A DNA stretch of 64,000 bases from an uncultured Alphaproteobacteria bacterium (GTDB lineage Bacteria; Pseudomonadota; Alphaproteobacteria; UBA8366), in the NCBI GenBank assembly GCA_963711215.1, contig CAVQDH010000002.1, forward strand, positions 1,110,134-1,174,133, written 5' to 3'. The notes under the pieces were generated by a model. That model had not been told where the DNA came from. It saw only the letters and a program-made list of their open reading frames with translations, and did no database searches. Position numbers and translations under genes: made by a program. Shown piece after piece: positions 1,514-63,366 of the stretch (positions within the stretch are counted from its first letter, which is position 1; each line of letters starts with the position of its first letter).

Positions 1514-2287
1514 TCACTGGAAGTAGACGATCTTGTTCTCCGGCGGGAGCACCGTGTTGAGCAGCATCTCCAGCCGGCGCGGGTTTTCCTGACGCGCGAT
1601 CGACCCGGCCGCCATGACGTACATTTCGCTGACGAGCGCGTCCTCCATGGCGTTTCGCTCCAGCTTGGAGGCGAGCGGCGTGAAGACGAGATTGGCCAGA
1701 ATGGCGCCGTAGAAGGTGGTCAGCAGGGCAACCGCCATGCTTGGGCCGATTGTGGACGGGTCTTCGAGATTGCCGAGCATCTGAACCAGTCCCACCAAGG
1801 TGCCGATCAGGCCCATTGCGGGCGAAATCTCCGCGGCCTTGCGCAAGACGCTGACCGTGCGAACCTGGCGGTCGGTCATCGTCTCCAGCTCGCTGTGCAT
1901 AATTCGTTCCACTTCGGCGGAATCGCTGCCGTCCACCACCATCGTGACGCCGCGGTACAGCAGGCCGTTATTCATCAGGTCCGGAAGATAGTCCTGCAGC
2001 GCCAAATGGCCCTTGCGCCGCGCGACATCGGACAGCTGCATGAGATGACGCGCGATTTCGAGCGGCTCCTGCGCGGCGCGGAAGACGGTCTGGCCAATGA
2101 CACGAAACGCCACCAGCATGTCGTGGATCGAGAAGCAGGCGACGGTCACGCCGAAGGTGCCGCCGCCGACGATCAGGATGGACGGGAAGTCGAAGAAGGC
2201 GGCGGGCCGGCCGCCGAGCACGATCGCCGCGACGACCAGCAGGAGCGCCGCCGCAATGCCGATCACCGTCGCAATATCGAGCGACAT
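1514..2287 (-). CDS. motA: Flagellar stator protein MotA
   Basis: MotA/TolQ/ExbB-type C-terminal TM region (PSMAVALLTTFYGAILANLVFTPLASKLE). I chose the internal ATG at 2287 (MSLDIATVIG) with AGGACGG upstream, not the ORF-track start at 2356. Confidence 0.85.
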   Translation of the reverse strand: MSLDIATVIGIAAALLLVVAAIVLGGRPAAFFDFPSILIVGGGTFGVTVACFSIHDMLVAFRVIGQTVFRAAQEPLEIARHLMQLSDVARRKGHLALQDYLPDLMNNGLLYRGVTMVVDGSDSAEVERIMHSELETMTDRQVRTVSVLRKAAEISPAMGLIGTLVGLVQMLGNLEDPSTIGPSMAVALLTTFYGAILANLVFTPLASKLERNAMEDALVSEMYVMAAGSIARQENPRRLEMLLNTVLPPENKIVYFQ

Positions 2288-2393
2288 CGTCGGCGGCGGG
2301 GTCCGTCCTAAGCTGTGCGGGCGAAGCCGCCGCGCGCTTTCTGTGCCAAAGGCCATGACTATATGCTTGCCGTCTCGTTGTTGCCGGGAACCG

Positions 2394-14633: not shown

Positions 14634-14691
14634 GCGCGGACTATATCAGCGGCTGGCGTGCCCGATAAGTGTCGACGTAAACTGCCGCGCC

Positions 14692-28016: not shown

Positions 28017-28064
28017 ATTTCCGTCCTGCGGACGCAACGGCCCGGACTCGCGCCTGTGACGACG

Positions 28065-37983: not shown

Positions 37984-38018
37984 AGTCGCCTTGATCCGTG
38001 TTCGTCGGCGGCAGCGGT

Positions 38019-38134
38019 GCAGATGCCATGCCATGGAGAAAGCGCCCGCTTTCTAAGGCATTGCGATGCGTGCCGGCGACGAGGGTCGGCGGCCTTCTGC
38101 CTATCCTTGCAGGCTTTGCCCGGCAGTTATTTCC
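38019..38134 (-). promoter_or_regulatory. Sigma-54 promoter module for flgF-flgG-flgA-flgH
   Basis: Minus strand TGGCATGGCATCTGCA (38034-38019, GG-N10-GC). Palindrome-like TTGCCCGGCAGTTATTTCC (38116-38134) about 95 bp upstream. Confidence 0.5.
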
Positions 38135-38383
38135 CGCAGTGTCCGGACGGTGCGCCGGCGCCCGGCGGCGGGTGGAGAACAGCGCGCCGTTGAGTCTGTA
38201 TTAGGCAATATTTATTTATGCGAGTCGCATGTAATTGATGAAATCGGGGCCCAGGCAGTTGTTTAGTGATTAGAGTTTTATTTGTTGATTAATCATTTTC
38301 ATATTTGTTAAATTCGCCGCGGCTTGAAATTGCCATTATATGGATTGATTCTTCGATGCCGACATTGATCGCGGTTCTCTCTC

Positions 38384-38941
38384 ATGGCTGACAAGGCGGA
38401 CCCGGCGGCGGAAGACCTTGCCGACGACGCGGAGGGCGAGGGCGCAGACGGCGAAGGCGGCCAAGGGTCGGGGAAAAAATTCGGAAAGAAGAAGCTCATC
38501 CTCTTTGCGGCGATCGGGCTGGTCGTCCTTGCGGGCGCCGGGGCCGGCGTCTATTTCTCGGGCCTGCTCGGCGGCGGCAAGGACAAGGCGCATGCCGGCA
38601 AGGACAGCGCCAGCGCCGAGGCGCCCAAGCCGATCGCGGCGCATTTCCTCGATCTGGACGAGATGGTCGTCACGCTCGGCGGCGTCGGCCGGAAATCGAG
38701 CTTTCTGAAGATGCGGGTGAGCCTGGAGCTGGCCAGTCCGGACGACGAGGCGCGCATCAAGGCCATCATGCCGCGGATCATCGACAATTTTCAGGTTTTC
38801 CTGCGCGAGCTGCGGATCGAAGAGCTGCAAGGGTCCCAGGGGCTATACCGCGTGAAGGAGGAGCTGCTGGCGCGGGTGAACGCGGCGGCGGCCCCGACGA
38901 AGGTGCGCGACGTCCTGTTTCGCGAAATGCTGGTCCAGTGA
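38384..38941 (+). CDS. fliL: Flagellar basal-body-associated protein FliL
   Basis: Single TM, then FliL core (FLDLDEMVVTLGG...SFLKMRVSLEL...IMPRIIDNFQVFLRELRIEEL). Confidence 0.85.
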   Translation: MADKADPAAEDLADDAEGEGADGEGGQGSGKKFGKKKLILFAAIGLVVLAGAGAGVYFSGLLGGGKDKAHAGKDSASAEAPKPIAAHFLDLDEMVVTLGGVGRKSSFLKMRVSLELASPDDEARIKAIMPRIIDNFQVFLRELRIEELQGSQGLYRVKEELLARVNAAAAPTKVRDVLFREMLVQ

Positions 38942-38998
38942 TGCATCGCGCATGCGGACGGAACAGGACGGTGGCAGGCGATTCGAAGGCAGGGTGTG

Positions 38999-40111
38999 AT
39001 GGCTGACGAAATCGAGGAAGCGAAAGAGCCGGCGGCGGAAGACCAGGCCGGCGAGGCGCCGGAAGGCGAAGAGGACGGCGACGATCTCGCCGCCGAATGG
39101 GCCGCGATGGCCGATGGCGACGGCGGCGGCGGCGGTGGCGATGCCGAAGGGGCCGGCTCCGCCCGCGTTCTCAACCAGGACGAAATCGACAGCCTTCTGG
39201 GGTTCCGCGAGGGCGGCGACGATACGACCGAGAAATCGGGCATCGAGGCCATCATCGACAGCGGCATGGTGTCCTACGAGCGCCTGCCGATGCTCGAGGT
39301 CGTCTTCGACCGCCTGGTGCGCATGCTGTCGACCTCGCTGCGCAATTTCACCTCCGACAACGTCGAAGTAAGCCTCGACAACATCTCGTCGATCCGCTTC
39401 GGCGACTATCTCAATTCGATCCCTCTGCCGGCCATGCTGGCGGTCTTCAAGGCGGAGGAATGGGATAACTTCGGCCTGATCACGGTCGACAGCTCGCTGA
39501 TCTACTCGATCGTGGACGTGCTGCTGGGCGGCCGCCGGGGCACGGCGGCGATGCGGATCGAAGGCCGTCCCTACACGACAATCGAACGCAATCTCGTCGA
39601 GCGGATGATCGCGGTCGTGCTGGCCGATCTTTCGGCCGCCTTCGACCCGCTGAGCTCCGTCAATTTCCGCTTCGACCGGTTGGAGACGAACCCGCGCTTC
39701 GCGACGATCGCGCGGCCGGCAAACGCGGCGATCGTGGTGCGCCTCCGGGTCGACATGGAGGATCGCGGCGGGCGTCTCGAGCTGCTGCTGCCTTACGCAA
39801 CCCTCGAGCCGGTCCGCGAGCTGCTGCTCCAGATGTTCATGGGCGAGAAATTCGGCCGTGACTCGATCTGGGAGAACCATCTCGCGACGGAGCTTTGGTA
39901 CACCGACGTCGAGCTCGAAGCGGTTCTGGACACGACCACCGTGACGCTGGCGGAGGTCCTGGAATGGAAGGTCGGCTCGCGCCTGGATCTGTTCGCGACG
40001 CCGAATTCCCTTGTCGAGCTCCAATGCGGCGACGTCCTGTTGTTCCGCGGACAGATGGGGCGCAAGAGCGAAAAGATCGCGGTCCGTATCGAGCAGAAGC
40101 TGGAGACCTGA
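38999..40111 (+). CDS. fliM: Flagellar motor switch protein FliM
   Basis: N-terminal CheY-P binding motif LNQDEIDSLLGF, FliM middle domain, and a SpoA-like C-terminus. Confidence 0.9.
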   Translation: MADEIEEAKEPAAEDQAGEAPEGEEDGDDLAAEWAAMADGDGGGGGGDAEGAGSARVLNQDEIDSLLGFREGGDDTTEKSGIEAIIDSGMVSYERLPMLEVVFDRLVRMLSTSLRNFTSDNVEVSLDNISSIRFGDYLNSIPLPAMLAVFKAEEWDNFGLITVDSSLIYSIVDVLLGGRRGTAAMRIEGRPYTTIERNLVERMIAVVLADLSAAFDPLSSVNFRFDRLETNPRFATIARPANAAIVVRLRVDMEDRGGRLELLLPYATLEPVRELLLQMFMGEKFGRDSIWENHLATELWYTDVELEAVLDTTTVTLAEVLEWKVGSRLDLFATPNSLVELQCGDVLLFRGQMGRKSEKIAVRIEQKLET

Positions 40112-40114
40112 GAG

Positions 40115-40624
40115 ATGTCATTCCCGCACGTTTCCTTTGTCCTTGAAGTGATCGGCGCGTGTCTTCTGCTGGTCATGATCATCTACGCGATTCAGCTCAA
40201 TCGGCGGCTTTCCGGGCTGCAGTCGGACAAGGCCTATCTGCAGAAGCTGATCATGGGTTTCAACGAGGCGACGGAAAGCGGTCGGAAGCAAGCATCGGCC
40301 GGCTGCGGATGGCGGCCCTGGAAGCGAATGACGCGCTGCAGACCAACACCAAGATCGCCAAGGACTTGCGCAATGATCTGTCCTTTCTGATCGACCGCGC
40401 CGAAAGCATGGCGGACCGGTTGGAAAGCTCGATCGCGAGCGGCCGTACGGAGAGCGCCTTCCCCGAGCAGACCGGAGAGTGTCTTCCCGGACAGAGCCGA
40501 GAGCGCCGTGCCGAACAGGACCGCCGAGATTTCCGCCTTCCGGCCGGTAAGAGGCGGCAAGGACACCAGCACTGCGTCGCACACCAAGGCGGCGCTTTCG
40601 AGGGCACTTGCGGGAATCCGCTAG
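40115..40624 (+). pseudogene. DUF6468-like small membrane protein of flagellar loci, probably two compensating frame breaks
   Basis: TM N-terminus (FVLEVIGACLLLVMIIYAIQLNRRL) in frame a. The convincing helical middle (IGRLRMAALEANDALQTNTKIAKDLRNDLSFLIDRAESMADRLE) is in frame b. The plausible tail ending ALSRALAGIR* is back in frame a. The first break is at AAA 40275-40277. Confidence 0.5.
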
Positions 40625-40628
40625 CTCC

Positions 40629-41369
40629 ATGCTGCAACGACTTCGCATCCTGCCGCTGCTGATCCTCGTGTCGGTGGCGATGTTCACCTTGAAGCTCGGC
40701 ACGATCTGGCAGGACATCATCGACCTCAATGCCTCGATGAAGTCGCGCCCGGCGCTGGCCGCAGAAGCGGGAGCGAAGCCGGATGCGAAAGCGCCGGAAA
40801 TGCCGAAGAATGCCGGCCCGGCGGCAGCCGCCAAGGCGCCGGCGGGGAAGTCGGATCCTTCGGCGGAGCTGCCGACCGCGGCACCGCCGGCCGGCGACGG
40901 CTCGTTCGATCCCCGGGATCTCAGCCAGTCCGAGGTGCGGTTGCTTCAGGCCCTGTCGGAACGCCGCAAGCAGCTGGATGCCCGGGAAAACAGCCTCAAC
41001 CAGCGCGAGGCGCTGCTCAAGGCCGCGGAACAGCAGCTGGTCGACAAGCAGGCGGATTTCGTCGCGATGCGGGACGAGGTCAAGGGGCTGCTCGGCCAGC
41101 TCGACGAACAGGAGAAGAAACGCATCAATAGCCTGGTAAAGCTTTATGAAACCATGAAGCCCAAGGACGCGGCCAAGATCCTTAACGACCTCGAATTGAG
41201 CGTCCTGCTCGGCGTCGTCGAGCGGATGAACGTCCGGCGGCTGGCGCCGGTTCTGGCCGACATGGACCCGGAGAAGGCACGCGCCATTACCCGGGCCCTG
41301 GCCACCCGCGAAAAGGCGCAGAAATCCTTGTCCGAGCGCATGAAAGACAGCGTCGCCGAACGCAAGTAG
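40629..41369 (+). CDS. MotE/FlbB-like protein (MgtE-N-like domain)
   Basis: N-terminal TM, coiled coil, then KRINSLVKLYETMKPKDAAKILNDLELSVLLGVVERMNVRRLAPVLADMDPEKA (MgtE_N-type helices). Confidence 0.6.
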   Translation: MLQRLRILPLLILVSVAMFTLKLGTIWQDIIDLNASMKSRPALAAEAGAKPDAKAPEMPKNAGPAAAAKAPAGKSDPSAELPTAAPPAGDGSFDPRDLSQSEVRLLQALSERRKQLDARENSLNQREALLKAAEQQLVDKQADFVAMRDEVKGLLGQLDEQEKKRINSLVKLYETMKPKDAAKILNDLELSVLLGVVERMNVRRLAPVLADMDPEKARAITRALATREKAQKSLSERMKDSVAERK

Positions 41370-41483
41370 CCATATTTCCTCGCAAATTTACCAAGATTTA
41401 ACGGAAACAGGGTTGTATTCCGCGCGTAGTAGGGGGGCGGCGCGACTTCCTCAGCCGCGACTGACCGCGAGGAGATTTGGTTC

Positions 41484-41870
41484 ATGGCCGTTGATTTGAA
41501 TATGCCGGTTCTGATCGTGGACGATTACAAGACCATGCTCAGAATTATCCGCAATCTGCTGAAGCAGATCGGCTTCAACAATGTCGACGAAGCGACAGAT
41601 GGGAAAGCCGCGCTTGAGAAGATGCAGCAGCGCAAGTACGGGCTGGTGATTTCCGACTGGAACATGGAGCCGATGACCGGCTTGGAGCTTCTGAAGGAAG
41701 TCCGCGCGGACGATAAGCTGCGTCCAACGCCGTTCATCATGATCACGGCGGAGAGCAAGACCGAAAACGTGATCGCCGCGAAGCAAGCCGGCGTGAACAA
41801 TTACATCGTCAAACCCTTCAATGCTGCGACGCTGAAGACGAAGCTCACGAGTGTCCTCGGCGACTTCTGA
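41484..41870 (+). CDS. cheY: Chemotaxis response regulator CheY
   Basis: 128 aa single receiver domain: DD (VDDYK), phospho-Asp (VISDWNMEP), T (ITAES), K (VKPF). GAGGAG RBS. Confidence 0.9.
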   Translation: MAVDLNMPVLIVDDYKTMLRIIRNLLKQIGFNNVDEATDGKAALEKMQQRKYGLVISDWNMEPMTGLELLKEVRADDKLRPTPFIMITAESKTENVIAAKQAGVNNYIVKPFNAATLKTKLTSVLGDF

Positions 41871-41881
41871 TTGGAACTGAC

Positions 41882-42559
41882 ATGTCGCGCTCGGTAAATC
41901 CCGAGCTCATGGGCTGTCTTGAGAATCTCAAGGCGGAAGGGGATCGAAAGCTTTCCGCCCGAGAGCTCGCAGAAATCATCGGCGATGTGGCCCGCACGCT
42001 GACTGGCGACCTTGCTCCGACAACGCATTCCATCGAGCCCGCCGCGACAAGCGGCGAGCCGGATGCGGTGCGTACGGCGGTCGCCGGCGCGCTCGAGGCT
42101 TTGCGTCGGATCGGCGATCCGGAGAAGGAGGACGGTCGGCTCGCCGAGCTGTGCTCCGAGATGGACGAGATCCGGGCGGCGACCCAGGATGCCGCGGCGA
42201 AATTCCTGTCGGTCGCCGAGCGTATCGAAGATATCGCCGGTCATCAGGACATGGACTCCGGCGACCAAAGCGATTTGTTCCGCCTGGCCACGGAGATTTA
42301 CGAGGCGTCCGGCTTCCAGGATATCACCGGCCAGCGCCTCACCCACATGGCGCAGACCCTGAAGCAGGTCGAGCTTCACCTCGCAAGCGCGGAAGCGGCG
42401 CTGGGCGATGACTCCGCGATGCACGCCGCCGAGATGCTGTCGGACACGGTCGAGAAGACCGAGGCGCGCAAAGTGGAATATATCTTGCACGGTCCGCAGG
42501 AGGCCGGGACAGCGAATACTCAAGAGGAGATCGACAAGATCCTGGCAAGTTTTGATTAG
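41882..42559 (+). CDS. cheZ: CheY-P phosphatase CheZ
   Basis: Catalytic motif FQDITGQ (E. coli has FQDLTGQ). C-terminal amphipathic acidic peptide QEEIDKILASFD resembles the CheY-binding tail of CheZ. Confidence 0.75.
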   Translation: MSRSVNPELMGCLENLKAEGDRKLSARELAEIIGDVARTLTGDLAPTTHSIEPAATSGEPDAVRTAVAGALEALRRIGDPEKEDGRLAELCSEMDEIRAATQDAAAKFLSVAERIEDIAGHQDMDSGDQSDLFRLATEIYEASGFQDITGQRLTHMAQTLKQVELHLASAEAALGDDSAMHAAEMLSDTVEKTEARKVEYILHGPQEAGTANTQEEIDKILASFD

Positions 42560-42571
42560 CAATTATCCCGA

Positions 42572-43246
42572 ATGAAGCAAATCAAAATCGAGCCTCGTCG
42601 TGACCCAGGAATAACTATATTTCTTAGTCTCTTCCTGTTATTGCTTGCCTTCTTTATTTTGCTGAATTCGTTGGCCACTATCGAGGAATTGAAGACGCGC
42701 AAGGTCCTTACGTCCGTCGCGGCAACCTTTCGCTCCGTGGTGGATAGTGAGACGCGCGAGCAGATCCTGATCTCGGACTTGGGGCCGACGCCGGAAGCAC
42801 AGGATGTTTTGGAGGCGTTACAGCAGCTTTGGGTTACTGCGGTTCCGGTCATCAAGGTGGAAAAGCTCACGCCGGGCCAGGTCATGCAAGTGACGCTCCC
42901 GGTCAATGACCTTTTTATGGGTGGCCGGCCGGTTCTGCGTAGCGACCGGGAGGGCTTGTTCAATCGCACGGCTCTGCTGTTGGCGCTCAAGTCGAAGGGC
43001 GCGGTGACGGACGCTCAGGTCGTATTCGGTATTAAGCGGGGCGAGCACACGCTGGCGGACGCGGATGGGCGCCTTGCGGCCGAACGTGCGGTCAAGATCG
43101 CCACCGCGCTGGTCACCCACGGAACGCCGCCCGACCGGTTGAGTGTCGGCGTGAGCGAGGGCGACCCGAAGACGGTGCGCATCGACTTCGAGATTCGCGA
43201 TGCGGGGCGGGCGCAGGTCACTTTCAAGAAAGAGAGTGCCAAGTGA
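42572..43246 (+). CDS. MotB-like paralogue lacking the conserved TM aspartate, with a degenerate OmpA-like domain
   Basis: Single N-terminal TM (ITIFLSLFLLLLAFFILLNS) without Asp. The C-part is collinear with the OmpA/MotB fold, but GHTD becomes FGIK and the N..LS..RA motif is altered. Confidence 0.55.
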   Translation: MKQIKIEPRRDPGITIFLSLFLLLLAFFILLNSLATIEELKTRKVLTSVAATFRSVVDSETREQILISDLGPTPEAQDVLEALQQLWVTAVPVIKVEKLTPGQVMQVTLPVNDLFMGGRPVLRSDREGLFNRTALLLALKSKGAVTDAQVVFGIKRGEHTLADADGRLAAERAVKIATALVTHGTPPDRLSVGVSEGDPKTVRIDFEIRDAGRAQVTFKKESAK

Positions 43247-43953
43247 GCATGCGGCGTCTTCAGGATCTCAAGAAGCAACAGAGCCCGGACGCCTGGCTCG
43301 TGACCTTCGCCGATATTTCCGCGCTCATGCTGGCATTCTTCGTCATGCTCTTCTCCATGTCGTCGCTCAGGCTCGACAAATGGCAGGCGGTGGTATCGCG
43401 CATGACCAAGGGAGAGCCGGCGCAGGTGCAGCTGCGGCCAAAGCCGATTTCCGAATACAGCGTGCCGACCGTCGATATTCCGCCCGCGCTGCCGCTCGGC
43501 TATCTGTCGCAGGTGCTGGATGAAAAGCTCAAGCCGCAGGTGGACGCCGGCCAGGTGATCATCCAGCGGCTCGACAAGATGCTGGTCGTCTCGCTGCCCT
43601 CGGACGTGCTTTTCCTGCCGGACAAGGCGACGCTGACGCCGCGCGCGAGCCAGGCCTTGTTCGGCGTCAGCAGCGCGCTCGCCCAGATCGGCAATCAGGT
43701 CGACGTCGAGGGGCATACCGCGCCCGCCGCCTCCCCGAAGACCGGGATCGAGTGGAAATGGCGGTTGTCCCTCGAGCGCGCGGCGGCTGTCGCCGACGAG
43801 CTGAAGCGGATCGGCTACCAAGGCAATCCGGCCATTCTGGGCCTGGCGGATTCGCGCTTCGGGTTTCTCGACAAGGCAATCCCGGAAGCCAAGCGGCTCG
43901 TGCTCGCGCGGCGCGTCGATCTCGTGATCCATCCGACGGAAGGTGAGCCGTGA
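43243..43953 (+). CDS. motB: Flagellar stator protein MotB
   Basis: WLVTFADISALMLAFFVML holds the proton-channel Asp. OmpA-like domain with VEGHT...WRLSLERAAAVADEL. GTGA overlap with the upstream paralogue. Confidence 0.85.
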   Translation: MSMRRLQDLKKQQSPDAWLVTFADISALMLAFFVMLFSMSSLRLDKWQAVVSRMTKGEPAQVQLRPKPISEYSVPTVDIPPALPLGYLSQVLDEKLKPQVDAGQVIIQRLDKMLVVSLPSDVLFLPDKATLTPRASQALFGVSSALAQIGNQVDVEGHTAPAASPKTGIEWKWRLSLERAAAVADELKRIGYQGNPAILGLADSRFGFLDKAIPEAKRLVLARRVDLVIHPTEGEP

Positions 43954-46900
43954 GCGCGCGCGCCGTCGCGATATGGCGCGGTCTGCTGGCGCTGGCGTTG
44001 CTGTTGGGATTCGGCCATGCGAGCGTCGCCGCCGACGCGGTCGGTATTCGCGCGTCCGAGCATCCCGGATACGCGCGTATTGTTTTCGACTGGCCCGAGC
44101 CCGTGGCGTTCACCGTCGCAACCCGCGGCCGCAGTCTTTGGATTCGGTTCGATCACGCGCTCCGCGCCGATCCCAAGGATCTCGTCCGGCCGCTGCGCCG
44201 CTATGTCGCCGGTGCGCGTCTGTCCAACGACCGCAAGGGCGTGGACATCGTCCTGAGCAACCCGTACCGGCTCGAATCCTTCGCGCTCGGCAATTCGGTC
44301 GTGTTCGACCTCCGGCCGGTCGGAAGCTCGGCCGAGGCAGGGCAGGACATCCAAGATGCCAACTTTACCGACGTCGCGCGGTCGGCCGACAGCGCGCCAC
44401 CCGAATTGCCGGTGCGGGTCGGCAATCACGACAAATATCTTCGGCTGGTTTTCGATTGGCGGAAGCCGGTCGATTACACCGTCGAGGAAACCAAGACGGC
44501 CGTGCAGCTGCGCTTCGCTCGCGCGGCGCGCGTTGATTTGGCCGCCTTGCGCAAGCGCTTGCCCGCCGGTTTCTCCGGCGCGGCTGTGAAGTCGGAATCC
44601 GGCTCGCTGACGCTGACCTTTCCCAAACCGCCGGATCGGCGGGTCCGCCATTTCAAGGCCGGCGCCAAAGTCGTGCTCGACTTCATGCGCGGCGGCGACA
44701 GCGCCGCGCGCAGCAAGGGTGCGGTCGCGAAGGCGGAGAAACCGGCGAAACCAACCGAAAAGCCGCCCCTAAAGCAGCCCGAGAGACAACCGGAAAAGAG
44801 CGCTAAGAAGGCATCGGAGCCGCCGCCGCCCACGGCGGCGCCGGTGCCGAAAGTTCAGGAAGAGGCGCTCTCGAAGACACCCTCGGCCGGCGAAAAGCCG
44901 GCCGAGAGCGACTCTGCGACCGCCGATGCCGGCAAGGCGATGGAGCCTTCGGCCGGCGGCGCATCGAACGGCAAACAGGATGTGCCCGCTGCGGCCGCGC
45001 CCGATGCTGCTGCGAAAGCGACGCCGCCCGCGGGCGCAAAGAAGGCCGTCAGCCTCGTCTTCGAGTGGCCCGAGCCGGTGGGGGCGGCCGTCTTCCGGCG
45101 TGAACCCTATGTTTGGGTGGTGTTCGACAAGCGCGCGGAGCTCAACCTCGCCGCGCTGAGGACGGCGGGCGCCGACGTGGTCACGATGATCGAGCAGCTG
45201 CCCGTCGGCAGCGGCACGGTCGTGCGCATGATCCCGAAGGATGGGCTGAGCCCGCATGTCGCCCGCGAGGGATCGAACTGGGTCGTTCGCTTCGAGCATG
45301 GTCCGATTTCGCCGCAGGTGCCGATCGCCTTGCGCGTGCGGGCGGAAGCGGACCAGGGCACCCAGCTCGAGCTGCCGGTCTCCGAGTTCGGGCAAATCAT
45401 CCACATTCCGGACCCCGACGTCGGCGATATGATAATCGCCGCGACGGTGCGGGCGGTCGGTCATGGCATTGCGGGGCGTCGGCGCTATCCGGAGTTCGAG
45501 CTGCTGCCATCCGCGCAGGGCGTCGGCATGGAGCCGCTCAGCGACGACGTCGATATCCGCAACGCGGGCGACCGCGGCCTCGTCGTCTCCGCGCCGGGCG
45601 GGCTTCAGATATCGAACGTGAACCAGGGCGCCGCGAAAACCGGAAGCTATCTCGGTCCGCGTATCTTCAATCTGGCCAGCTGGTGGGGTCCCAAGGATGA
45701 GTCCTTCATCCCGGCGCGCCAGGCGATGTTCGCGGCGGTGATCGCAGCCAAGCCCGAGCGCCGCGACGATGCACGGCTCGATATCGCGCGCTTCTATTTC
45801 GCCCGCGGCTTCGGCGCGGAGGCTCTCGGCGTGCTTCGCACGATCGAATACGCCAACCAGGACATGGCGTCCCAGCCGGAATTCCATGCGCTGAAAGGGG
45901 CGGTGCAGGTGCTCATGGACCGCCCGTACGAGGCCAGAAAGGCGCTGCTGGATCCGAGTCTCGACCAGTATCAGGAAATCGAGCTTTGGCGCGGCTCCAT
46001 GTTCCTGGAGAGCGAGGAGCCGAAAAAGGCGGCTGCGCATTTCCGGGCCGGCGAGCCCGCCTTGTCGAGCTATCCCGACCCGATCCGGTCGCGCCTTGCG
46101 ATCCAGCTCGTGGAGGCGAGCCTCGCCGATCTCGACGTCGAGACGGCCGCGCGCTGGCTCGACCAGCTGGCCCACGAGAAGGACAAGCTGCCGCGCGATC
46201 TGGCGGCGCGGATGCTTTACGATCAAGGCGTGCTGGCCAGGGACAACCGCAAGCTCGACGACGCGGTCAAGATCTGGACGAAGGCGACGGAAGGCGACGA
46301 CCGCTGGGCCGCGGCGCATGCGGAATACGCCCTGATCGACCTTGGGCTGCAGCAGGAGACAATGACGCCGGACGAAGCGATCAAGCGGCTGGACCGCCTG
46401 CGCTTTCAATGGCGGGGCGACGATCTTGAGCTGGATGTGCTGCAGCGGCTCGGCAAGCTGTACCTGGCGAAGAACGAATACCGCAAGGGTCTCACGACGC
46501 TGCGGACCGCCGTCACCTATTTCCCGGAGAAGAAGCGGGCGAAGAGCATCGCCAAGACGATGAGCGACGCTTTCCGGAAACTGCATTTGGCCGGCGAGGC
46601 CGATCGGTTGCCGCCGCTGAAGGCGCTTGCGCTCTATGACGATTTCCGCGAGCTGACGCCGGCTGGCCCCGAAGGCGATCTCATGATCCAGCGCCTGGCC
46701 GACCGGCTGGTCGCCGTCGACCTGCTCGACCGCGCCGCGAGCTTGCTTTCCCACCAGGTGCGCTACCGGCTTAAAGGCGAAGGGCGCGCCCGGGTCGGCG
46801 CCAAGCTCGCGTTGATCTTGTTGCTCGATCGCAATCCGAAAGGCGCGCTTGCGGCATTGCGCAACAGCTTCCAACCCAATCTTCCCTACGACGTTGAGGA

Positions 46901-47498
46901 TGACCGGCGGCGCATCAGAGCCAAAGCGACGATGGAGCTCGGCCGTTACGAAGATGCGATCGCGCTTCTGGCGGGCGATGTCAGTCGGGAGGCCGACCTT
47001 CTGCGCGCCAGCATTTATTGGGGCACGAAAGATTATGGCGAGGCCGCGAAGGTTCTGCAGCGGTTGGCCGGCGATCCGTTGGAGGACGGCGCCTATCCGG
47101 ACGACCAGGCGCGCTACATTCTGAACTGGGCCGTCGCCTTACGCCTCAAGCGCGACGATGCCGGGATCAAGATGCTGCGCGAGCTGTACGGCCCGGGCAT
47201 GGGCAAGAGCAAGCTGGCCGACGCCTTCTCCTATATTACGAGCGACGAGCCCGACAGCGTGAGGAACATCGAAGAGATGTCCAAGCGCATCGCGGAAACC
47301 GACAAGTTCGACGGCTTTCTCAAGGAATATCGCGAACGCCTGATGGTACCGCTGGCAGCGGCGTCCAAGACCGGCAAGGACAAGGCGCCGGCAGAGGCGG
47401 GTCAGCAGCAACAGCCGCCGGCCGCGGTTTCCACGCCGGCGCCGCCGCAGCCTGGCCCGGCCGCCATTCCGCCGCCACCGCCGCCGCCCCAAGGCTAG
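43950..47498 (+). CDS. Large secreted repeat/TPR protein of unknown function (1182 aa)
   Basis: Signal peptide (LLALALLLGFGHASVAA). Three repeats of a beta-rich module marked by [RL][IL]VF[DE]W..PV (RIVFDWPEPV, RLVFDWRKPV, SLVFEWPEPV). Lys/Pro/Ala linker, long TPR-like helical C-half, poly-Pro tail. GTGA overlap with the motB stop. Confidence 0.7.
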   Translation: MSARAVAIWRGLLALALLLGFGHASVAADAVGIRASEHPGYARIVFDWPEPVAFTVATRGRSLWIRFDHALRADPKDLVRPLRRYVAGARLSNDRKGVDIVLSNPYRLESFALGNSVVFDLRPVGSSAEAGQDIQDANFTDVARSADSAPPELPVRVGNHDKYLRLVFDWRKPVDYTVEETKTAVQLRFARAARVDLAALRKRLPAGFSGAAVKSESGSLTLTFPKPPDRRVRHFKAGAKVVLDFMRGGDSAARSKGAVAKAEKPAKPTEKPPLKQPERQPEKSAKKASEPPPPTAAPVPKVQEEALSKTPSAGEKPAESDSATADAGKAMEPSAGGASNGKQDVPAAAAPDAAAKATPPAGAKKAVSLVFEWPEPVGAAVFRREPYVWVVFDKRAELNLAALRTAGADVVTMIEQLPVGSGTVVRMIPKDGLSPHVAREGSNWVVRFEHGPISPQVPIALRVRAEADQGTQLELPVSEFGQIIHIPDPDVGDMIIAATVRAVGHGIAGRRRYPEFELLPSAQGVGMEPLSDDVDIRNAGDRGLVVSAPGGLQISNVNQGAAKTGSYLGPRIFNLASWWGPKDESFIPARQAMFAAVIAAKPERRDDARLDIARFYFARGFGAEALGVLRTIEYANQDMASQPEFHALKGAVQVLMDRPYEARKALLDPSLDQYQEIELWRGSMFLESEEPKKAAAHFRAGEPALSSYPDPIRSRLAIQLVEASLADLDVETAARWLDQLAHEKDKLPRDLAARMLYDQGVLARDNRKLDDAVKIWTKATEGDDRWAAAHAEYALIDLGLQQETMTPDEAIKRLDRLRFQWRGDDLELDVLQRLGKLYLAKNEYRKGLTTLRTAVTYFPEKKRAKSIAKTMSDAFRKLHLAGEADRLPPLKALALYDDFRELTPAGPEGDLMIQRLADRLVAVDLLDRAASLLSHQVRYRLKGEGRARVGAKLALILLLDRNPKGALAALRNSFQPNLPYDVEDDRRRIRAKATMELGRYEDAIALLAGDVSREADLLRASIYWGTKDYGEAAKVLQRLAGDPLEDGAYPDDQARYILNWAVALRLKRDDAGIKMLRELYGPGMGKSKLADAFSYITSDEPDSVRNIEEMSKRIAETDKFDGFLKEYRERLMVPLAAASKTGKDKAPAEAGQQQQPPAAVSTPAPPQPGPAAIPPPPPPPQG

Positions 47499-47539
47499 CA
47501 CCGCATTCATCCGGCTGGAGACGGGCGGGACGCCGGCCG

Positions 47540-48304
47540 TCAGCTCGGGCCGAAGCTTTGCACCAGGCTGCCGGCGACAAGGTACCAGCCGTCCACCAGC
47601 ACGAAAAAAATCAATTTGAACGGCAGGGAGATCATCACCGGCGGCAGCATCATCATGCCCATCGACATCAGCACCGACGCCACCACCATGTCGATGATGA
47701 GAAACGGCACGAACAGGAGAAAGCCGATCTCGAAGGCGCGGCGCAGCTCGGAGATCATGAAAGCGGGAATGAGCGCCTGCAGCGGCGTCTTGTCGGGTGA
47801 ATCGATGTTGTCGGCCTTCGCCATGTTGAGAAAGAGGTCGAGATCCTTCGGCCGGACGTGCTCGAGCATGAAGGTGCGAAAAGGAGCGACGCTTCGGTCG
47901 ACCGCCTGCTGCTCGGTGATCTGCTGTGCGATCAGTGGCGCGATGCCGTTTTGGTAGGCCGCCTCGAGCGTCGGCTGCATGATGAACAGCGTCATGAACA
48001 GCGCCAGGCTGATGACGACCGCGTTGGGCGGCGTGCCCTGCGTGCCGATCGCGGTGCGCAGCAGCGACAGCACGATGACGATGCGGACGAAGGACGTCAC
48101 CATGACGAGGATGGACGGCGCCAGCGTCAGGATGGTGAGGAGGGCGACCAGCTGAACGATACGGCCGGTCGCTTCGCCGCCCGTGCCGAAATCCAGGGTC
48201 ACGTTCTGCGCGCCGGCGGCGCCGGAGACCAGGACGGCAAAGGCAAATGCCACGATCGGCGCGATCGCGCGAAGGACGGCGACGGGGCGTAAGCGTCCCG
48301 TCAC
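47540..48304 (-). CDS. fliP: Flagellar export apparatus protein FliP
   Basis: FVRIVIVLSLLRTAIGTQGTPPNAVVISLALFMTLFIM and the remainder is collinear with FliP. Confidence 0.95.
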   Translation of the reverse strand: MTGRLRPVAVLRAIAPIVAFAFAVLVSGAAGAQNVTLDFGTGGEATGRIVQLVALLTILTLAPSILVMVTSFVRIVIVLSLLRTAIGTQGTPPNAVVISLALFMTLFIMQPTLEAAYQNGIAPLIAQQITEQQAVDRSVAPFRTFMLEHVRPKDLDLFLNMAKADNIDSPDKTPLQALIPAFMISELRRAFEIGFLLFVPFLIIDMVVASVLMSMGMMMLPPVMISLPFKLIFFVLVDGWYLVAGSLVQSFGPS

Positions 48305-48654
48305 TGCCGCGTCTCTCCGGGCGACCGGAGCATGCTTTGGAAGCTGCCGCCCTGCGCACCTGGACGCTGTTGCGCAGGCTTGATGTTGCTTTCGATCAGC
48401 AGGTCGGCCGCATTTCCGAGCAGGACGAGATGCTCCGTATCGTCGCGGCGGATCAGGACGAGGCGCCGCCGGGCGTCGAGAGCGGCGACCTCGACCACGG
48501 CCAGCCGCTTTTCAGCCTGCCGGCCCTTGCTGCGAAAGGCGGGCGAGATCCGCACCGTGCCGAAACCAAAACGGCGCAGCAGGAATGCCAGCATCCCTAT
48601 AAGGCCAAGAACAAAAAGCAACGCCAGAAGGAATCTGACGTATTCAACTTCCAC
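48301..48654 (-). CDS. fliO: Flagellar export protein FliO
   Basis: 117 aa, single TM (FLLALLFVLGLIGMLAFLL), then RLAVVEVAALDARRRLVLIRRDDTEHLVLLG. Overlaps the fliP start. GTG start with GGGGAG RBS. Confidence 0.75.
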   Translation of the reverse strand: MEVEYVRFLLALLFVLGLIGMLAFLLRRFGFGTVRISPAFRSKGRQAEKRLAVVEVAALDARRRLVLIRRDDTEHLVLLGNAADLLIESNIKPAQQRPGAQGGSFQSMLRSPGETRQ

Positions 48655-48730: not shown

Positions 48731-49036
48731 CTATGCGCCCGATCGCCCTGCTGTCGTCATCTGGCCGTCCGAACCGCCCGTCGCTTCGAGATCGGCGATT
48801 TTCTCCTGCACCTCGGCCGCGAAACGCTTGAAGTCCGTCAGCAGCTCGATGAGCGTCGGCCGCAACTCGATCGCATCGTCGGGCGGAAGGTCGGTGATCG
48901 ATCCCATGAGCTCACGCAATCTTCCGGGGATATCGCCGATGTCCACGAGCTCGTTGCGCGCCAGCGCGGCGCGCGCCGTCACGATCATCTCGGCAACGAT
49001 CGTCAGTTCGCCGTTAATGGTGTCTTTCGTCATCAT
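48731..49036 (-). CDS. Hypothetical 101-aa helical protein, translationally coupled within the fliO-fliP operon
   Basis: ATGATGA overlap with the upstream gene. Soluble and acidic, with no motif I recognise. Confidence 0.5.
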   Translation of the reverse strand: MMTKDTINGELTIVAEMIVTARAALARNELVDIGDIPGRLRELMGSITDLPPDDAIELRPTLIELLTDFKRFAAEVQEKIADLEATGGSDGQMTTAGRSGA

Positions 49037-49368
49037 GAGCTGGGTACCTCCGGGGGCTGGGCGCCGTTCGCCGCATAGACGTAGCGCAGGATCTCGGCAA
49101 CGGCGATAAAGGCCTCTACCGGGATTTCTTCGTCGAGATCGATGGCGGCAAGAACCTCGGCAAGGTCCGCGTCCTCGCGCACCTTGATGCCATGCGCAAA
49201 GGCAACCTCGAGGATCTTCTCGGCAATCCATCCGCGCCCCGATGCAACGACTTTGGGAGCGGAGCTCTCGTCGACCGGTTGATAGCGGATGGCGACCGCC
49301 GTGCGGCCGGAATCTTCCTTCGCTGTCGTGCCCGGCGGCGCGGCGCCGCCTTTACGGGAATTCGACAT
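49033..49368 (-). CDS. FlhB C-terminal-domain-like protein (EscU/YscU/HrcU family, stand-alone)
   Basis: AVAIRYQP...APKVVASGRGWIAEKILEVAFAHGIKVREDADLAEVLAAIDLDEEIPVEAFIAVAEIL parallels the FlhB cytoplasmic domain at 53000-53250 but lacks NPTH. Confidence 0.75.
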   Translation of the reverse strand: MSNSRKGGAAPPGTTAKEDSGRTAVAIRYQPVDESSAPKVVASGRGWIAEKILEVAFAHGIKVREDADLAEVLAAIDLDEEIPVEAFIAVAEILRYVYAANGAQPPEVPSS

Positions 49369-49797
49369 GGTGCCTTTCGCTATTGCTCTTGTCCGTCGCC
49401 GTGCATGGACCGTTTTCCCCGAGAATGCGGATCGGCTCCGTGCAGGAGCCGGATGCATGATCTCGACGTCATAAGCGCAACCGACGTCGTCAAGACAATT
49501 AAAGTGCTGCGGACGTACGACAACAACATTCGCCACCCGGCAACACTGTGAATCCTCACCTCTGTTGAAAATTATGCGCAGCTTTTATTCATATTTCCAG
49601 CGAAAATGAAGGGTCAAAAATAAATAGACAATATTCCATCTCGCGAATCGACAGTGAAGATTTCCCCTATATTTCGGATATTGGTTTACATATTAAGATT
49701 TTAACGTTAATTTGCGCTCAAATTGAGAATATGCCCTGCGTGATCCGGTCGCCGTTCTTCCTTGCAGGATGATCGTCGGCCAATCTCAAAACGGGCT

Positions 49798-52192: not shown

Positions 52193-53287
52193 ATGTCTGA
52201 AGAAACAGACGACACACAAAAAACAGAAGATCCGACACAAAAAAAGGTCGACGAGGCGCGTAGTCATGGCCAGGTCGCCATCAGCCGGGAAATCAATACC
52301 TGGCTCATGCTGGCCGTCGGCACGCTGATCATCGCCATGATGCTGCCGATAATGATGACCCGGCTGCGCGTGGCGCTGCTGCCGTTTATCGAATCACCGC
52401 AACTCTATGCCCTCAACATCGGCGCGACGGTTCACCTGATGAAGGCCACGCTGTTCAGCGTGTTCCTGGTCGTCTTCCTGCCGCTGCTGTTCTTTTTCGT
52501 GATCGCGATGGCCGGGCCCATCATCCAGAACGGATTGGTCTTTTCCCCGAAGGCTCTCGAGGTGAAGTGGGACAAGTTCAATCCGGTGAATGGCGCTAAG
52601 CGCCTGTTCTCCGTGCGGCAGCTGATCGAGCTTCCAAAAGGCATCGTGAAGCTGGCGATCGTCGGCGGTGTCGGGGTTGCGGCGCTGATGCCGGCCTTCT
52701 TCTCGCTCGATGTCGTACCGTCCTTCGCATTGCCCGATTTTCTCGACGCGCTCTATACGCTGATCCTCAAGATGCTGATCGTGACGCTGGCGGCGTTCTT
52801 CGTGATCGCGGTCCTCGACCTCATATTCCAGCGTTTCCAGCACCTCAAGCAGCTGCGCATGAGCCGCCAGGAGCTGCGGGACGAGTTCAAGCAATCGGAA
52901 GGCGACCCGACGGCGAGGCAAAGGCTGCGCCAGGTTCGCCAGGATCGGGCACGGGCGCGCATGATGCAGGCCGTGCCCGACGCCGACGTCGTGGTGACCA
53001 ACCCGACCCATTTCGCCGTCGCCCTCAAATACGAGCCGGAGGCGATGGGTGCGCCGAGGCTGGTCGCCAAGGGCGTGGACCTGATCGCCCAGAAGATACG
53101 CGAAGTCGCCGAGGAGCACGGTATCGCCATCATCGAGAACCCGCCGCTTGCCCGTGCGCTCTACGCCGCCGTCGACCTTGATGAAGAGGTGCCGCCGGAG
53201 CACTATCAGGCCGTGGCCGAGGTTATCAGCTACGTATGGAATATCGAAGGCCGCAGAATGCCCAAGGAGGCCGGTATTGCCCGATGA
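52193..53287 (+). CDS. flhB: Flagellar export switch protein FlhB
   Basis: 364 aa, N-terminal TM domain, NPTH autocleavage site (VVVTNPTHFAVALKY). Confidence 0.95.
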   Translation: MSEETDDTQKTEDPTQKKVDEARSHGQVAISREINTWLMLAVGTLIIAMMLPIMMTRLRVALLPFIESPQLYALNIGATVHLMKATLFSVFLVVFLPLLFFFVIAMAGPIIQNGLVFSPKALEVKWDKFNPVNGAKRLFSVRQLIELPKGIVKLAIVGGVGVAALMPAFFSLDVVPSFALPDFLDALYTLILKMLIVTLAAFFVIAVLDLIFQRFQHLKQLRMSRQELRDEFKQSEGDPTARQRLRQVRQDRARARMMQAVPDADVVVTNPTHFAVALKYEPEAMGAPRLVAKGVDLIAQKIREVAEEHGIAIIENPPLARALYAAVDLDEEVPPEHYQAVAEVISYVWNIEGRRMPKEAGIAR

Positions 53288-59033: not shown

Positions 59034-60128
59034 ATGATGAACCCGGCCCTACGCCTCGTCGAAAAGGACACGATGGACAAGCAGAAAGCCCTGGAGGCGG
59101 CCCTCACCCAGATCGAGCGGTCGCATGGCAAGGGCTCGATCATGAAGCTCGGCCAGCAGACGGCGGTCGAGGTGGAGTCGGTGCCCACCGGCTCGCTCGG
59201 CCTCGACATCGCGCTCGGCATCGGCGGCTTGCCGCGCGGCCGCGTCGTCGAGATCTACGGGCCGGAAAGCTCGGGCAAGACCACGCTGGCGCTGCATGTG
59301 CTGGCGGAGGCGCAGAAGCTCGGCGGTACCTGCGCCTTCATCGACGCGGAGCACGCGCTCGACCCCGGCTACGCCAAGAAGCTCGGCGTCAACCTGGACG
59401 ATCTCCTGATCTCCCAGCCCGACGCCGGCGAGCAGGCGCTCGAGATCGCCGATACGCTGGTCCGCTCCGGCGCGATAGACGTCATGGTCATCGACTCGGT
59501 GGCGGCGCTCGTGCCGCGGGCCGAGCTCGAGGGCGAGATGGGCGACAACCATGTCGGCCTGCACGCCCGCCTGATGAGCCAGGCGCTGCGCAAGCTGACC
59601 GGCTCGATCAACCGCTCGAAGACCATGGTCATCTTCATCAACCAGATCCGCATGAAGATCGGCGTCATGTTCGGCAGCCCGGAGACCACGACCGGCGGCA
59701 ACGCGCTCAAATTCTACGCCAGCGTCCGGCTCGATATCCGCCGCATCGGCCAGATCAAGGACCGCGACAACGTGGTCGGCAACCAGACGCGTGTGAAGGT
59801 GGTCAAGAACAAGGTCGCGCCGCCCTTCAAGGTGGTCGAGTTCGACATCATGTACGGCGAGGGCGTGTCCAAGACCGGCGAGCTGCTCGACCTCGGCGTC
59901 AATGCCGGGATCATCGAGAAGTCCGGGGCCTGGTTCTCCTACAAGGATCAGCGGATCGGCCAGGGCCGGGAAAACTCCAAGACCTTCCTCAAGGAGAATA
60001 CGGAGATCGCGGCCGAGATCGAGCGCCGCATCCGCGAGAATGCCGGCATCCTGTCGGAAGTCATGCTGGAAGGCCCGACCGCCGAGGAGGCGGCCGACGA
60101 CCCGGTCGACGTGGCCGAGGAGGCATAG
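59034..60128 (+). CDS. recA: Recombinase RecA
   Basis: Walker [10 protein letters not shown], and full-length collinearity with RecA. The N-terminus [20 protein letters not shown] matches alphaproteobacterial RecA. Confidence 0.97.
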
Positions 60129-60258
60129 GGCGCGCGCCATCCCGTTATCAGAGGCAAGAGGTGTTACCCCCAGGAAGACGATGAAGGCACTGTTACCACC
60201 CACCGGGTAGCCCGGCATGTTACCGGCCGGGATGCCAGAAGCTACCCCTTCGACCCTG

Positions 60259-60294
60259 CTGCGGCGCGGCCCCCTACCGCGCCGCAGTGCTTTT
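60259..60294 (+). terminator. Rho-independent terminator after recA
   Basis: CTGCGGCGCGG-N7-CCGCGCCGCAG followed by TGCTTTTG. Confidence 0.7.
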
Positions 60295-60560
60295 GCGGTC
60301 GGGTCTTTTGCAGCCGGGCCGGTTGCGCCGGGCATGGCCGCCCGCCGCGCCCGGCCGCCGCGTCCCGCGGTTGAACCGGGGTGATTTCGTCATAGTTTCT
60401 GCCAGGCTGGAAGGCGCCGCGGGCGCGCCGTTTGCTGGACAGCGACCGGCGCAGCGGGGTACAACCGCGATCGGCCTTTTTTCCCGTTTTTCGAGGGTTT
60501 TGCGGCCGGACCGCGGGGCGGACAGCCGTCCGGCCGATAGCCGAAGGCGGTCGCCGGTGA

Positions 60561-60590
60561 GGGATGAGGGTGACGGGTGAGGGTGACGGG
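60561..60590 (+). repeat. G-tract tandem repeat (G-quadruplex-type motif) just upstream of the alaS start
   Basis: GGGATGAGGGTGACGGGTGAGGGTGACGGG: five G3 runs with 3-4 nt spacers, including a direct repeat of GTGAGGGTGACGG. It ends 20 nt before the ATG. Confidence 0.6.
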
Positions 60591-60609
60591 CGAAAGTGAA
60601 GAGTATGCG

Positions 60610-63285
<2,676 letters not shown>

Positions 63286-63366
63286 AGGGCGTGGCCGGCT
63301 TGATCGAAATCTCACCGCGGCCTAAGCTTTGCCGCACCGCAACAACCAGCAGAATCAGGAAAATTC

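Follow-up and report, generated by a model that had tools for sequence, protein, structure and literature searches.

We analysed a stretch of 64,000 nucleotides (hereafter the window) from an uncultured alphaproteobacterium of the UBA8366 lineage (GenBank assembly GCA_963711215.1, contig CAVQDH010000002.1, positions 1,110,134 to 1,174,133 of the forward strand), and in it a large gene lying immediately downstream of the stator gene motB (43950..47498, plus strand). From its open reading frame (ORF) and translation, its homologues and BLASTP comparisons, we propose that this gene is probably the Rhodospirillales-type, long-form orthologue of Caulobacter fssB, and encodes a periplasmic stator-scaffold protein of the PflA/MotK/FssB class. 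The export signal, the domain make-up, the sequence match to the protein that occupies the FssB position, the flagellar synteny and the coupling to motB are established in the present analysis; the paralysed mutant phenotype, the binding to MotE and MotB and the spoke geometry would be carried over from the relatives of the protein.

The 982-residue protein P0215 of Caulobacter sp. aligned with the window protein with a BLASTP E-value of 1e-91 and 32% identity over 785 amino acids, and the alignment spans the third AMIN-like module, the fourth beta domain (D4) and the whole helical solenoid described below. The P0215 locus (L085) reads flgH-flgA-flgG-flgF, then fliL-fliM-DUF6468-263aa-982aa, then fliP. 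Since this gene layout equals that of CC_2062..CC_2058 in C. crescentus, in which pflI (CC_2060) and the gene of a 264-residue MotE homologue (CC_2059) precede CC_2058 (PMC13023049, PMC10954123), we place P0215 at the CC_2058 position. The AMIN-like module found by domain hidden Markov models (HMMs) at residues 34-122 of P0215 agrees with the published limits of that of CC_2058 (36-132; PMC10954123). CC_2058 is fssB (CCNA_02137), the product of which combines a Sec signal with a TPR domain; its deletion mutant makes filaments and does not swim, a phenotype "analogous to a motB mutant", and the deletion also blocks a stator-dependent mechanical signalling pathway (PMC7885107, Hershey, Fiebig & Crosson 2021). 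The initial annotation of the window had presented the protein as its best candidate for an undescribed structural component, a view not supported in the light of the match to the Caulobacter protein; its guess of a periplasmic motor scaffold was essentially right, with literature support from FssB, MotK and PflA.

Gene limits, export signal and domain make-up

The ORF comprises 1182 codons and is initiated by GTG. The TGA stop of motB shares four nucleotides (GTGA) with this start codon, an overlap already described in the initial annotation, and the purine-rich sequence GGAAGGTGAG stands directly 5' of the GTG. The product begins with a Sec-type signal peptide devoid of a lipobox cysteine (residues 1-27, 43950..44030, plus strand), recognised from the sequence, the hydropathy and the conservation of the N-terminus in homologues. 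In this N-terminus (MSARAVAIWRGLLALALLLGFGHASVAA, followed by DA), a positively charged n-region leads into a hydrophobic core (Kyte-Doolittle 2.58) and then into a cleavage region rich in alanine, and a Sec-like N-terminus of the same kind occurs in 93 of 99 homologues, in agreement with the signal peptide previously claimed. Hydropathy indicated no second hydrophobic segment in the 1182-residue protein. We discounted a 701-residue ORF on the opposite strand (44769-46874) as an artefact of high GC content, since homologues support the sense frame in depth and its structure is predicted with confidence. A promoter and terminator scan of positions 38000-48400 yielded counts not above those of shuffled sequence, and is therefore uninformative on the limits of the operon.

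The structure was predicted with AlphaFold2 on the two halves of the protein separately, with the alignment of the 99 homologues. The N-terminal half (residues 28-575; mean predicted local distance difference test score, pLDDT, 81.7) holds four confident beta domains (D1 to D4, residues ~30-126, 150-250, 364-453 and 456-553; pLDDT >90), the first three of which are AMIN-like modules (A1 to A3); all the features that follow lie on the plus strand. Module 1 (residues 30-126, 44037..44327), supported by AlphaFold2, hhalign and domain HMMs, is lacking in the Caulobacter orthologues. Module 2 (residues 150-250, 44397..44699) rests on Pfam scores below the cut-off, on Foldseek and on a PDB profile match to PilQ. 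It is followed by a disordered linker rich in Ala, Pro, Lys and Glu (residues ~250-362, 44700..45035; AlphaFold2 and composition), which counts 28 Ala, 19 Pro and 15 Lys per 113 residues, is predicted without secondary structure (pLDDT 43-63) and differs in length from homologue to homologue. Module 3 (residues 364-453, 45039..45308; hhalign and alignment to the Caulobacter protein), which aligns to the Caulobacter protein from residue 182, is the start of the conserved FssB core; it carries the strongly conserved EPVGAAVFRR motif, and its R384 is invariant. The fourth beta domain (D4, residues 456-553, 45315..45608; AlphaFold2 pLDDT >93 and hhalign) displays the conserved motifs DPxVGD and YPEFxLLxSAQG.

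The C-terminal half (residues 565-1135) was modelled as an uninterrupted helical solenoid (mean pLDDT 90.2). The TPR-like alpha-solenoid proper (residues ~575-1131, about 557 residues and 33 helices, 45672..47342) is supported by AlphaFold2, by a Pfam TPR_19 match (33.8 bits) and by 185 Foldseek matches to TPR structures at E<=1e-3, among them the C. jejuni scaffold chain 9hmf_K, and it bears the conserved motifs LRFxWRGD and LYDDFRELTP. The protein ends with a Pro/Ala/Gln-rich tail (residues 1136-1182, 47355..47495), judged disordered from sequence and composition, which contains 15 prolines in 47 residues and terminates in PPPPPPPQG.

The module motif occurs three times, as RIVFDWPEPV (residues 43-52), RLVFDWRKPV (165-174) and SLVFEWPEPV (367-376). 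In profile-profile comparisons of the four beta domains, performed with hhalign on sub-alignments of the family, the E-values were 7e-32 for D1 versus D2, 8.5e-14 for D1 versus D3 and 8e-17 for D2 versus D3, whereas D4 was unrelated to any of D1-D3 (E>0.1). Because of these values, we regard D1-D3 as genuine repeats and D4 as a separate domain. The architecture set out in the initial annotation is upheld: its Lys/Pro/Ala-rich spacer is the disordered linker, its further beta region is D4, its approximately 550 residues of TPR-like helices are the solenoid, and its poly-proline tail is the proline-rich C-terminus. As to its claim of a module in three copies marked by a motif beginning with R or L, the three copies and their homology stood, and the third copy starts with S, not with R or L.

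The same annotation had likened the modules to AMIN domains, a resemblance that holds for the fold and is borderline for the sequence. When the N-terminal model was compared with the PDB using Foldseek, the one match at E<=0.001 was PilQ (E=1.2e-4, 296 columns), taken from a model of the type IVa pilus of Myxococcus; the N-terminus of PilQ is made of tandem AMIN domains. The AMIN domain of AmiC (4bin) was matched with a probability of 1.0 and a root-mean-square deviation (rmsd) of 3.3 Å over 114 columns. The family profile reached the PilQ AMIN region among the PDB sequences (E=0.008-0.019), and a precomputed annotation of the same protein includes PF24837.2; in our own runs, module 2 scored 21-26 bits against the Pfam AMIN-like family, below the cut-off. 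We accept, on the predicted structure, that the modules adopt an AMIN-like fold. Small heat-shock/p23-like Foldseek matches of the N-terminal model (E 0.04-0.7, rmsd >10 Å) were set aside as a generic beta-sandwich likeness.

As PilQ gave the best N-terminal structural match as well as a PDB profile match, the protein might be thought of as a type IV pilus or secretin accessory, in the manner of a PilQ AMIN region fused to the TPR of PilF, all the more so as the likeness of PflA to PilQ-AMIN and PilF has been noted in the literature (PMC11870540). We hold this explanation to be extremely improbable: the protein has no secretin domain, its neighbourhood contains no pilus genes, its neighbours are all flagellar, its homologues co-occur with flagellar genes in the 80 loci presented below, and the likeness is one of common domains only.

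Distribution, synteny and shorter relatives

A database search returned more than 175 full-length relatives of similar length, mostly from Rhodospirillales-type alphaproteobacteria and all labelled hypothetical or "TPR repeat protein", and a scan of one genome per species confirmed their presence in 537 genomes or more. The core formed by module 3 and D4 was then sought among 1.84 billion library representatives and turned up in 1,937 representative clusters with E<=1e-3 (1,075 with E<=1e-10), mostly in proteins of 950-1,290 residues; this A3-D4 core is both specific and widespread.

Synteny was counted in the best 80 loci, in which the same gene string recurs. They come from different species, among them members of Thalassospira, Terasakiella, Rhodospira, Novispirillum, Caenispirillum, Kiloniella, Oceanibaculum, Haematospirillum and Tepidicaulis. 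The motB gene stands immediately upstream of the large gene in 69 of the 80 loci, and at least six of the other 11 lack upstream sequence because the contig ends there. In 57 of the 69 loci, the large gene has its first in-frame start between -20 and +30 nucleotides from the motB stop, and the exact four-nucleotide overlap is found in about 21 of them. Two loci (L021 and L061) keep only motB' (a motB-like paralogue), motB and the large gene, without the fliL-fliM block, and therefore this triad is the most constant unit. The conservation of the neighbourhood with motB, proposed in the initial annotation as a check, is thus borne out, and across the 80 loci the homologues are clearly not located away from flagellar genes.

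This synteny also bears on the idea that the protein is a general envelope TPR/AMIN protein (Tol-Pal/CpoB-like, BcsC-like as in cellulose export, or an "endoglucanase") standing beside flagellar genes by chance. Envelope machines commonly contain TPR and AMIN domains, weak profile matches to YbgF/CpoB, BamD and PorW were obtained, and some relatives bear enzymatic or cellulose-related labels: several Caulobacter FssB-family records (P0245, P0263, P0265, P0342 and others) are named "endoglucanase", and one Azospirillum-type relative is named "cellulose synthase operon protein C". As Pfam and NCBIfam scans detected no catalytic domain, these names look like annotation errors. Because flagellar synteny is conserved in essentially all of the 80 loci with flanking sequence, and also in Caulobacter, in Erythrobacter and in the lateral-flagellum clusters of Azospirillum, this explanation is largely refuted. 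The conserved start/stop coupling to motB and the specifically Mot- phenotype of the Caulobacter orthologue (PMC7885107) also speak against it, and we rate it as very improbable.

The route from the window protein to Caulobacter FssB led through shorter relatives, which were found by tblastn of plasmids and chromids; a Salipiger match was among the results. The relative carried by an Erythrobacter aureus plasmid (L082 6953-8599, 548 residues) consists of TPR only; those of Alloyangia and Marinovum plasmids (L081 6905-8752 and L083 7833-9686, ~615-617 residues) comprise a signal peptide and TPR; all three lie in flagellar clusters. The relative of Azospirillum lipoferum, encoded on plasmid AZO_p5 (L084 7149-9644, 831 residues), comprises a signal peptide, one AMIN-like module, a Pro-rich linker and TPR, and its gene stands directly upstream of motA-motB in a lateral-flagellum cluster. 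The WRGD-like motif of the solenoid reads LRFAWRGD in Azospirillum, WRGD in Alloyangia and Marinovum, and ISFGWRGGE in Erythrobacter; an alignment of the four short plasmid-borne relatives was misaligned near WRGD and was left out as a query. A search seeded with the Azospirillum protein returned mainly Azospirillum sequences, plus a group of ~950-990 residues with a Caulobacter sp. cluster, and when the Caulobacter protein served as the seed, the best 120 matches were all of Caulobacter type. The family is present across the genus Caulobacter, with lengths of 950-990 residues.

Family domain HMMs assigned three layouts (SP, signal peptide): SP-A1-A2-linker-A3-D4-TPR for the subfamily of the window protein, including a ~1,260-residue group with a Xanthobacteraceae member; SP-A-A3-D4-TPR for Caulobacter; and SP-A-linker-TPR for the lateral system of Azospirillum. 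These layouts show the window protein to be a long form, in which an additional AMIN-like module and an extended linker are present.

The other genes of the window

The large gene closes the plus-strand string fliL-fliM-DUF6468-motE-cheY-cheZ-motB'-motB-large gene, with fliP convergent; the minus-strand neighbours are flgK, flgL, flgH, flgA, flgG and flgF, and fliR, flhB, fliF, flgE, flgD, fliK, flagellin genes and motA lie elsewhere in the window. The head of the string is formed by fliL and fliM (38384..40111, plus strand; Pfam FliL, FliM and FliMN_C), followed on the same strand by a DUF6468 gene (40159..40662, limits uncertain; Pfam DUF6468 E=8e-12) at the position of pflI, CC_2060 in Caulobacter, as in locus L085. 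The next gene (40608..41369, plus strand; Pfam MgtE_N E=2e-5, NCBIfam collar_FlbB E=4e-9) encodes a MotE/FlgY/FlbB-type protein composed of an N-terminal membrane anchor, a coiled coil and an MgtE_N/ARM-like domain, and is the predicted E-ring partner of the large protein (PMC13023049). The mechanical ORFs of these two genes overlap by 55 nucleotides, and the ends of the DUF6468 ORF translate implausibly; the true limits are probably narrower, with a likely start of the MotE homologue at the Met of MLQRLRILPLL.

Downstream of the motE homologue and upstream of the motB paralogues stand cheY and cheZ-like genes (41484..42559, plus strand; NCBIfam CheY E=1e-47, Pfam CheZ E=1.8e-7), an insertion into the motor operon that is kept in most related loci and absent from the Caulobacter locus. 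The motB-like paralogue motB' (42572..43246, plus strand, 224 residues; weak MotB_plug and OmpA matches) overlaps motB by four nucleotides, and motB itself (43243..43953, plus strand, 236 residues; Pfam MotB_plug E=6e-14, OmpA E=2.5e-8) overlaps the start of the large gene with its stop. In the transmembrane helix of MotB', Ser19 (FLSLF) occupies the place of the proton-carrying Asp of MotB (FAD; Asp24). This position is S in 28, G in 4, A in 2 and D in none of 34 related loci, whereas the transmembrane Asp of the true MotB is kept in 68 of 68 loci. We regard MotB' as a conserved pseudo-MotB, and its presence just upstream as one of the features that set the window gene apart from the described members.

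The motA gene (1514..2356, minus strand; Pfam MotA_ExbB E=1.9e-26) lies ~40 kb from motB, outside the motB operon, and the stator genes are thus unlinked, as in Caulobacter. It adjoins the gene of an FlbD-like sigma-54 activator with a receiver domain (115-1449, minus strand), with fliF nearby (4825-6360). A 167-residue ORF (49033-49536, minus strand) matches the C-terminal part of FlhB only (Bac_export_2 positions 261-335); a full-length flhB stands elsewhere (52193-53287), and a counterpart of the short ORF is found 3' of fliP in most related loci. The other TPR genes of the window carry glycosyltransferase domains: four TPR-glycosyltransferase (GT41 or GT9) fusions (14632-16767, 17080-18945 and 20011-21459, plus strand; 25959-28037, minus strand) adjoin flagellin genes (24048-24875 and 28065-29021) and an aminotransferase gene (21506-22606), with which they probably form a flagellin glycosylation set. 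These fusion proteins are of cytoplasmic type and unrelated to the large periplasmic protein. At the right-hand end of the window, two long ORFs of 428 and 1013 residues (59049-63315, minus strand), which compete with ORFs of the plus strand, had no Pfam match.

Proposed role and comparison with described motor proteins

By analogy with the described relatives, we propose that the protein would be exported by the Sec pathway, its ratio to MotB being fixed by the overlapping stop and start codons. The AMIN-like modules, spaced by the flexible Ala/Pro/Lys linker, may attach, at the radius of the stators, to the peptidoglycan and/or to the periplasmic portion of MotB. The A3-D4 core and the TPR superhelix of ~16 hairpins could together form a radial spoke to the ring of the MotE/FlgY homologue around the MS-ring. 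The spoke and the ring would recruit, hold and activate the MotA/MotB stator units, so that loss of the protein should leave the flagella assembled but paralysed. We infer the same role in the organism of the window, as well as the attribution of each domain to its putative partner.

The following points weigh against this proposal. First, the sequence scores of the modules fall short of the Pfam cut-offs (26.4 bits versus 27 for AMIN-like, PF24837; 17.6 bits versus 20.5 for AMIN, PF11741), and the binding of peptidoglycan by these predicted AMIN-like modules is only inferred. Second, although chain 9hmf_K (C. jejuni scaffold entry 9HMF), the 773 residues of which should correspond to PflA minus 15 N-terminal residues, was matched by both halves of the model, the TPR match ranks tenth among hundreds of TPR matches with a TM score of 0.26, and the N-terminal match has an E-value of 0.66. 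Such scores are at the level of any TPR or beta-sandwich, and are therefore consistent with a PflA likeness without proving it; the PDB sequence-profile search returned designed or generic TPRs and a weak PilQ, with no PflA chain among 57 matches at E<=10, and 9HMF being an alpha-carbon trace, its chains may be outside the sequence set. Third, no PflB-like gene (membrane-anchored TPR), nor any other gene of a periplasmic or membrane TPR protein, was seen in the flagellar cluster within the 64-kb window, and therefore the PflA-style spoke-and-rim geometry is not directly transferable. Fourth, P0215 is presumed to be the counterpart of C. crescentus FssB by position and genus-level homology, a link that runs through Caulobacter sp. 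and C. mirabilis proteins, and the literature attributed the Caulobacter E-ring and spokes to CC_2059 and CC_2058 by deduction, without mutant tomograms. Fifth, the link to MotK and MotC rests on architecture, context and published structural comparisons, and the putative role of the long-form, three-module subfamily on the experiments made with its relatives.

The triad composed of the long form, the pseudo-MotB and MotB invites a bolder speculation, namely that these coupled proteins might build a distinct, multi-point, peptidoglycan-tied structure that anchors the stators in spirillum-type alphaproteobacteria. The pseudo-MotB could then be a non-conducting subunit or a heterodimer partner of MotB, and A3-D4 a previously unrecognised MotB- or MotE-binding module. 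We regard this as a doubtful possibility; if true, it would represent an alphaproteobacterial mode of static stator retention, unlike the E-ring of Caulobacter and unlike the PflA/PflB spoke-and-rim of Campylobacter.

The initial annotation knew of no equivalent of the Campylobacter-type scaffold in alphaproteobacterial motors, a statement contradicted by FssB (PMC7885107), MotK (PMC10954123) and the MotC of Sinorhizobium; its comparison with PflA is the one that recent literature draws for the same class (PMC12054838, PMC11870540, PMC13023049). Indeed, FlgY-PflA, MotE-MotC/MotK, FlbB-FlcB and CC_2059-CC_2058 are treated as equivalent pairs in reviews (PMC13023049), and CC_2058, MotK and PflA have been grouped as AMIN + linker + TPR "spoke" proteins that bind the MotE/FlgY E-ring and MotB.

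The window protein is homologous in sequence to the Caulobacter proteins at the FssB position across A3, D4 and the TPR region, and shares with them the Sec signal peptide, an AMIN-like module, the A3-D4 beta core, the C-terminal solenoid and the gene order fliL-fliM-DUF6468(pflI)-motE-X convergent with fliP. It differs from them by being ~200 residues longer, with one more N-terminal AMIN-like module and the 113-residue disordered linker. Furthermore, the Caulobacter gene comes directly after motE, whereas cheY, cheZ, motB' and motB intervene in the window, an insertion that is characteristic of the window lineage, and the start/stop coupling to motB is a feature of the window gene.

MotK of the Fla2 system of Cereibacter sphaeroides is a 652-residue protein made of an AMIN-like N-terminus, a Pro-rich linker, a TPR-like region and a Pro-rich tail, encoded in the operon fliL2-pflI-motE-motA2-motK. 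It is needed for rotation and dispensable for assembly, its partners are MotE and MotB2, and its polar localisation depends on MotA2/MotB2 (PMC10954123, Velez-Gonzalez et al. 2024). The authors of that study listed CC_2058 as a distant MotK homologue, and reported the absence of BLAST similarity between the two proteins (PMC10954123). MotK and the window protein are alike in the succession of signal peptide, N-terminal AMIN-like beta domain, Pro-rich linker, TPR-like helices and Pro-rich tail, and in their location in a fliL-pflI-motE-stator operon. The differences are that MotK has one AMIN domain, versus three modules in the window protein, and a helical region of ~275 residues, that motK follows motA2 rather than motB, and that the domain HMM scan did not detect the A3-D4 core in the Azospirillum lateral-flagellum relative, which has a MotK-like layout.

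PflA of C. jejuni and H. pylori, which consists of a beta-sandwich, a linker and 16-17 TPR, forms radial spokes between the E-ring made of FlgY (a MotE homologue) and the stator ring, and scaffolds the stators (PMC12222027, PMC12054838, PMC11870540). The likeness to the window protein lies in the periplasmic location, the N-terminal AMIN-like beta-sandwich, the unstructured linker, the superhelix of 16-17 TPR and the MotE homologue as partner (predicted for the window protein, FlgY of the E-ring in the case of PflA), PflA being required for stator occupancy. Unlike the window protein, PflA contains only one beta-sandwich, and it operates together with a PflB rim, no PflB-like gene having been seen in the window; no sequence similarity to PflA was detected in the PDB profile search, the structural matches are generic, and components of the Campylobacter cage, medial disk and basal disk are absent.

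The comparison with MotC bears on the main rival of the scaffold proposal, in which the protein would be a soluble activator chaperoned by MotE and would bind transiently to the periplasmic domain of MotB, in order to free the plug and open the channel or to tune the speed, without any stable ring or spoke. According to the introduction of the MotK paper, MotC of Sinorhizobium is a TPR protein encoded after motB and known since the 1990s, and work cited there found that motB and motC mutants were rescued only by the joint expression of both genes (PMC10954123), a requirement with which the conserved coupling to motB is consistent. The window protein is likewise a periplasmic TPR protein encoded directly 3' of motB, with a MotE homologue in the operon (PMC10954123, PMC13023049), and MotC is described in these sources as needing MotE, as being required for rotation and as depending on the MotB:MotC stoichiometry. 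The rival is also favoured by the Caulobacter suppressors of the fssA defect, which map to the MotB plug and, fssB acting in the same pathway, point to stator activation (PMC7885107). On the other hand, the three AMIN-like modules speak for a fixed position, their fold being one that AmiC and PilQ use in peptidoglycan-linked localisation, the 16-hairpin TPR solenoid suggests a fixed, elongated element, PflA has the same architecture and is a static spoke in situ (PMC12222027), and MotE reaches the motor without MotK, against a chaperone-only role (PMC13023049). MotC itself is a TPR-only protein of 434 residues without AMIN modules or beta core, and its homology to the FssB/MotK/PflA class was proposed on structural grounds only. 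Searches of NCBIfam and Pfam with the whole protein and with four segments, up to E=10, gave no match to MotC, MotE, FlgT or FlgP, which leaves distant homology possible and accords with the initial annotation, MotE being the separate upstream gene at 40608-41369. We consider a MotC-style activator rather unlikely, and note that the activator and the scaffold models are partly compatible and not fully exclusive.

Returning to the scaffold proposal, the family as such is already known from FssB, MotK and PflA, and what is new is an architecturally expanded long form, with one extra AMIN module, a long linker and a tight coupling to motB. Current views are thereby extended to a further lineage and not overturned. 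About 1,900 clusters called hypothetical, TPR repeat protein or endoglucanase in alphaproteobacterial flagellar loci are tied to the phenotyped FssB, and via FssB to the PflA/MotK class, which permits their better annotation. Together, these comparisons outline a class graded in architecture: some members consist of TPR only, others add a single AMIN module to it, and others still combine it with three AMIN modules and a beta core. This gradation supports the view, proposed recently, that E-rings and spokes are of ancient origin and widely distributed.

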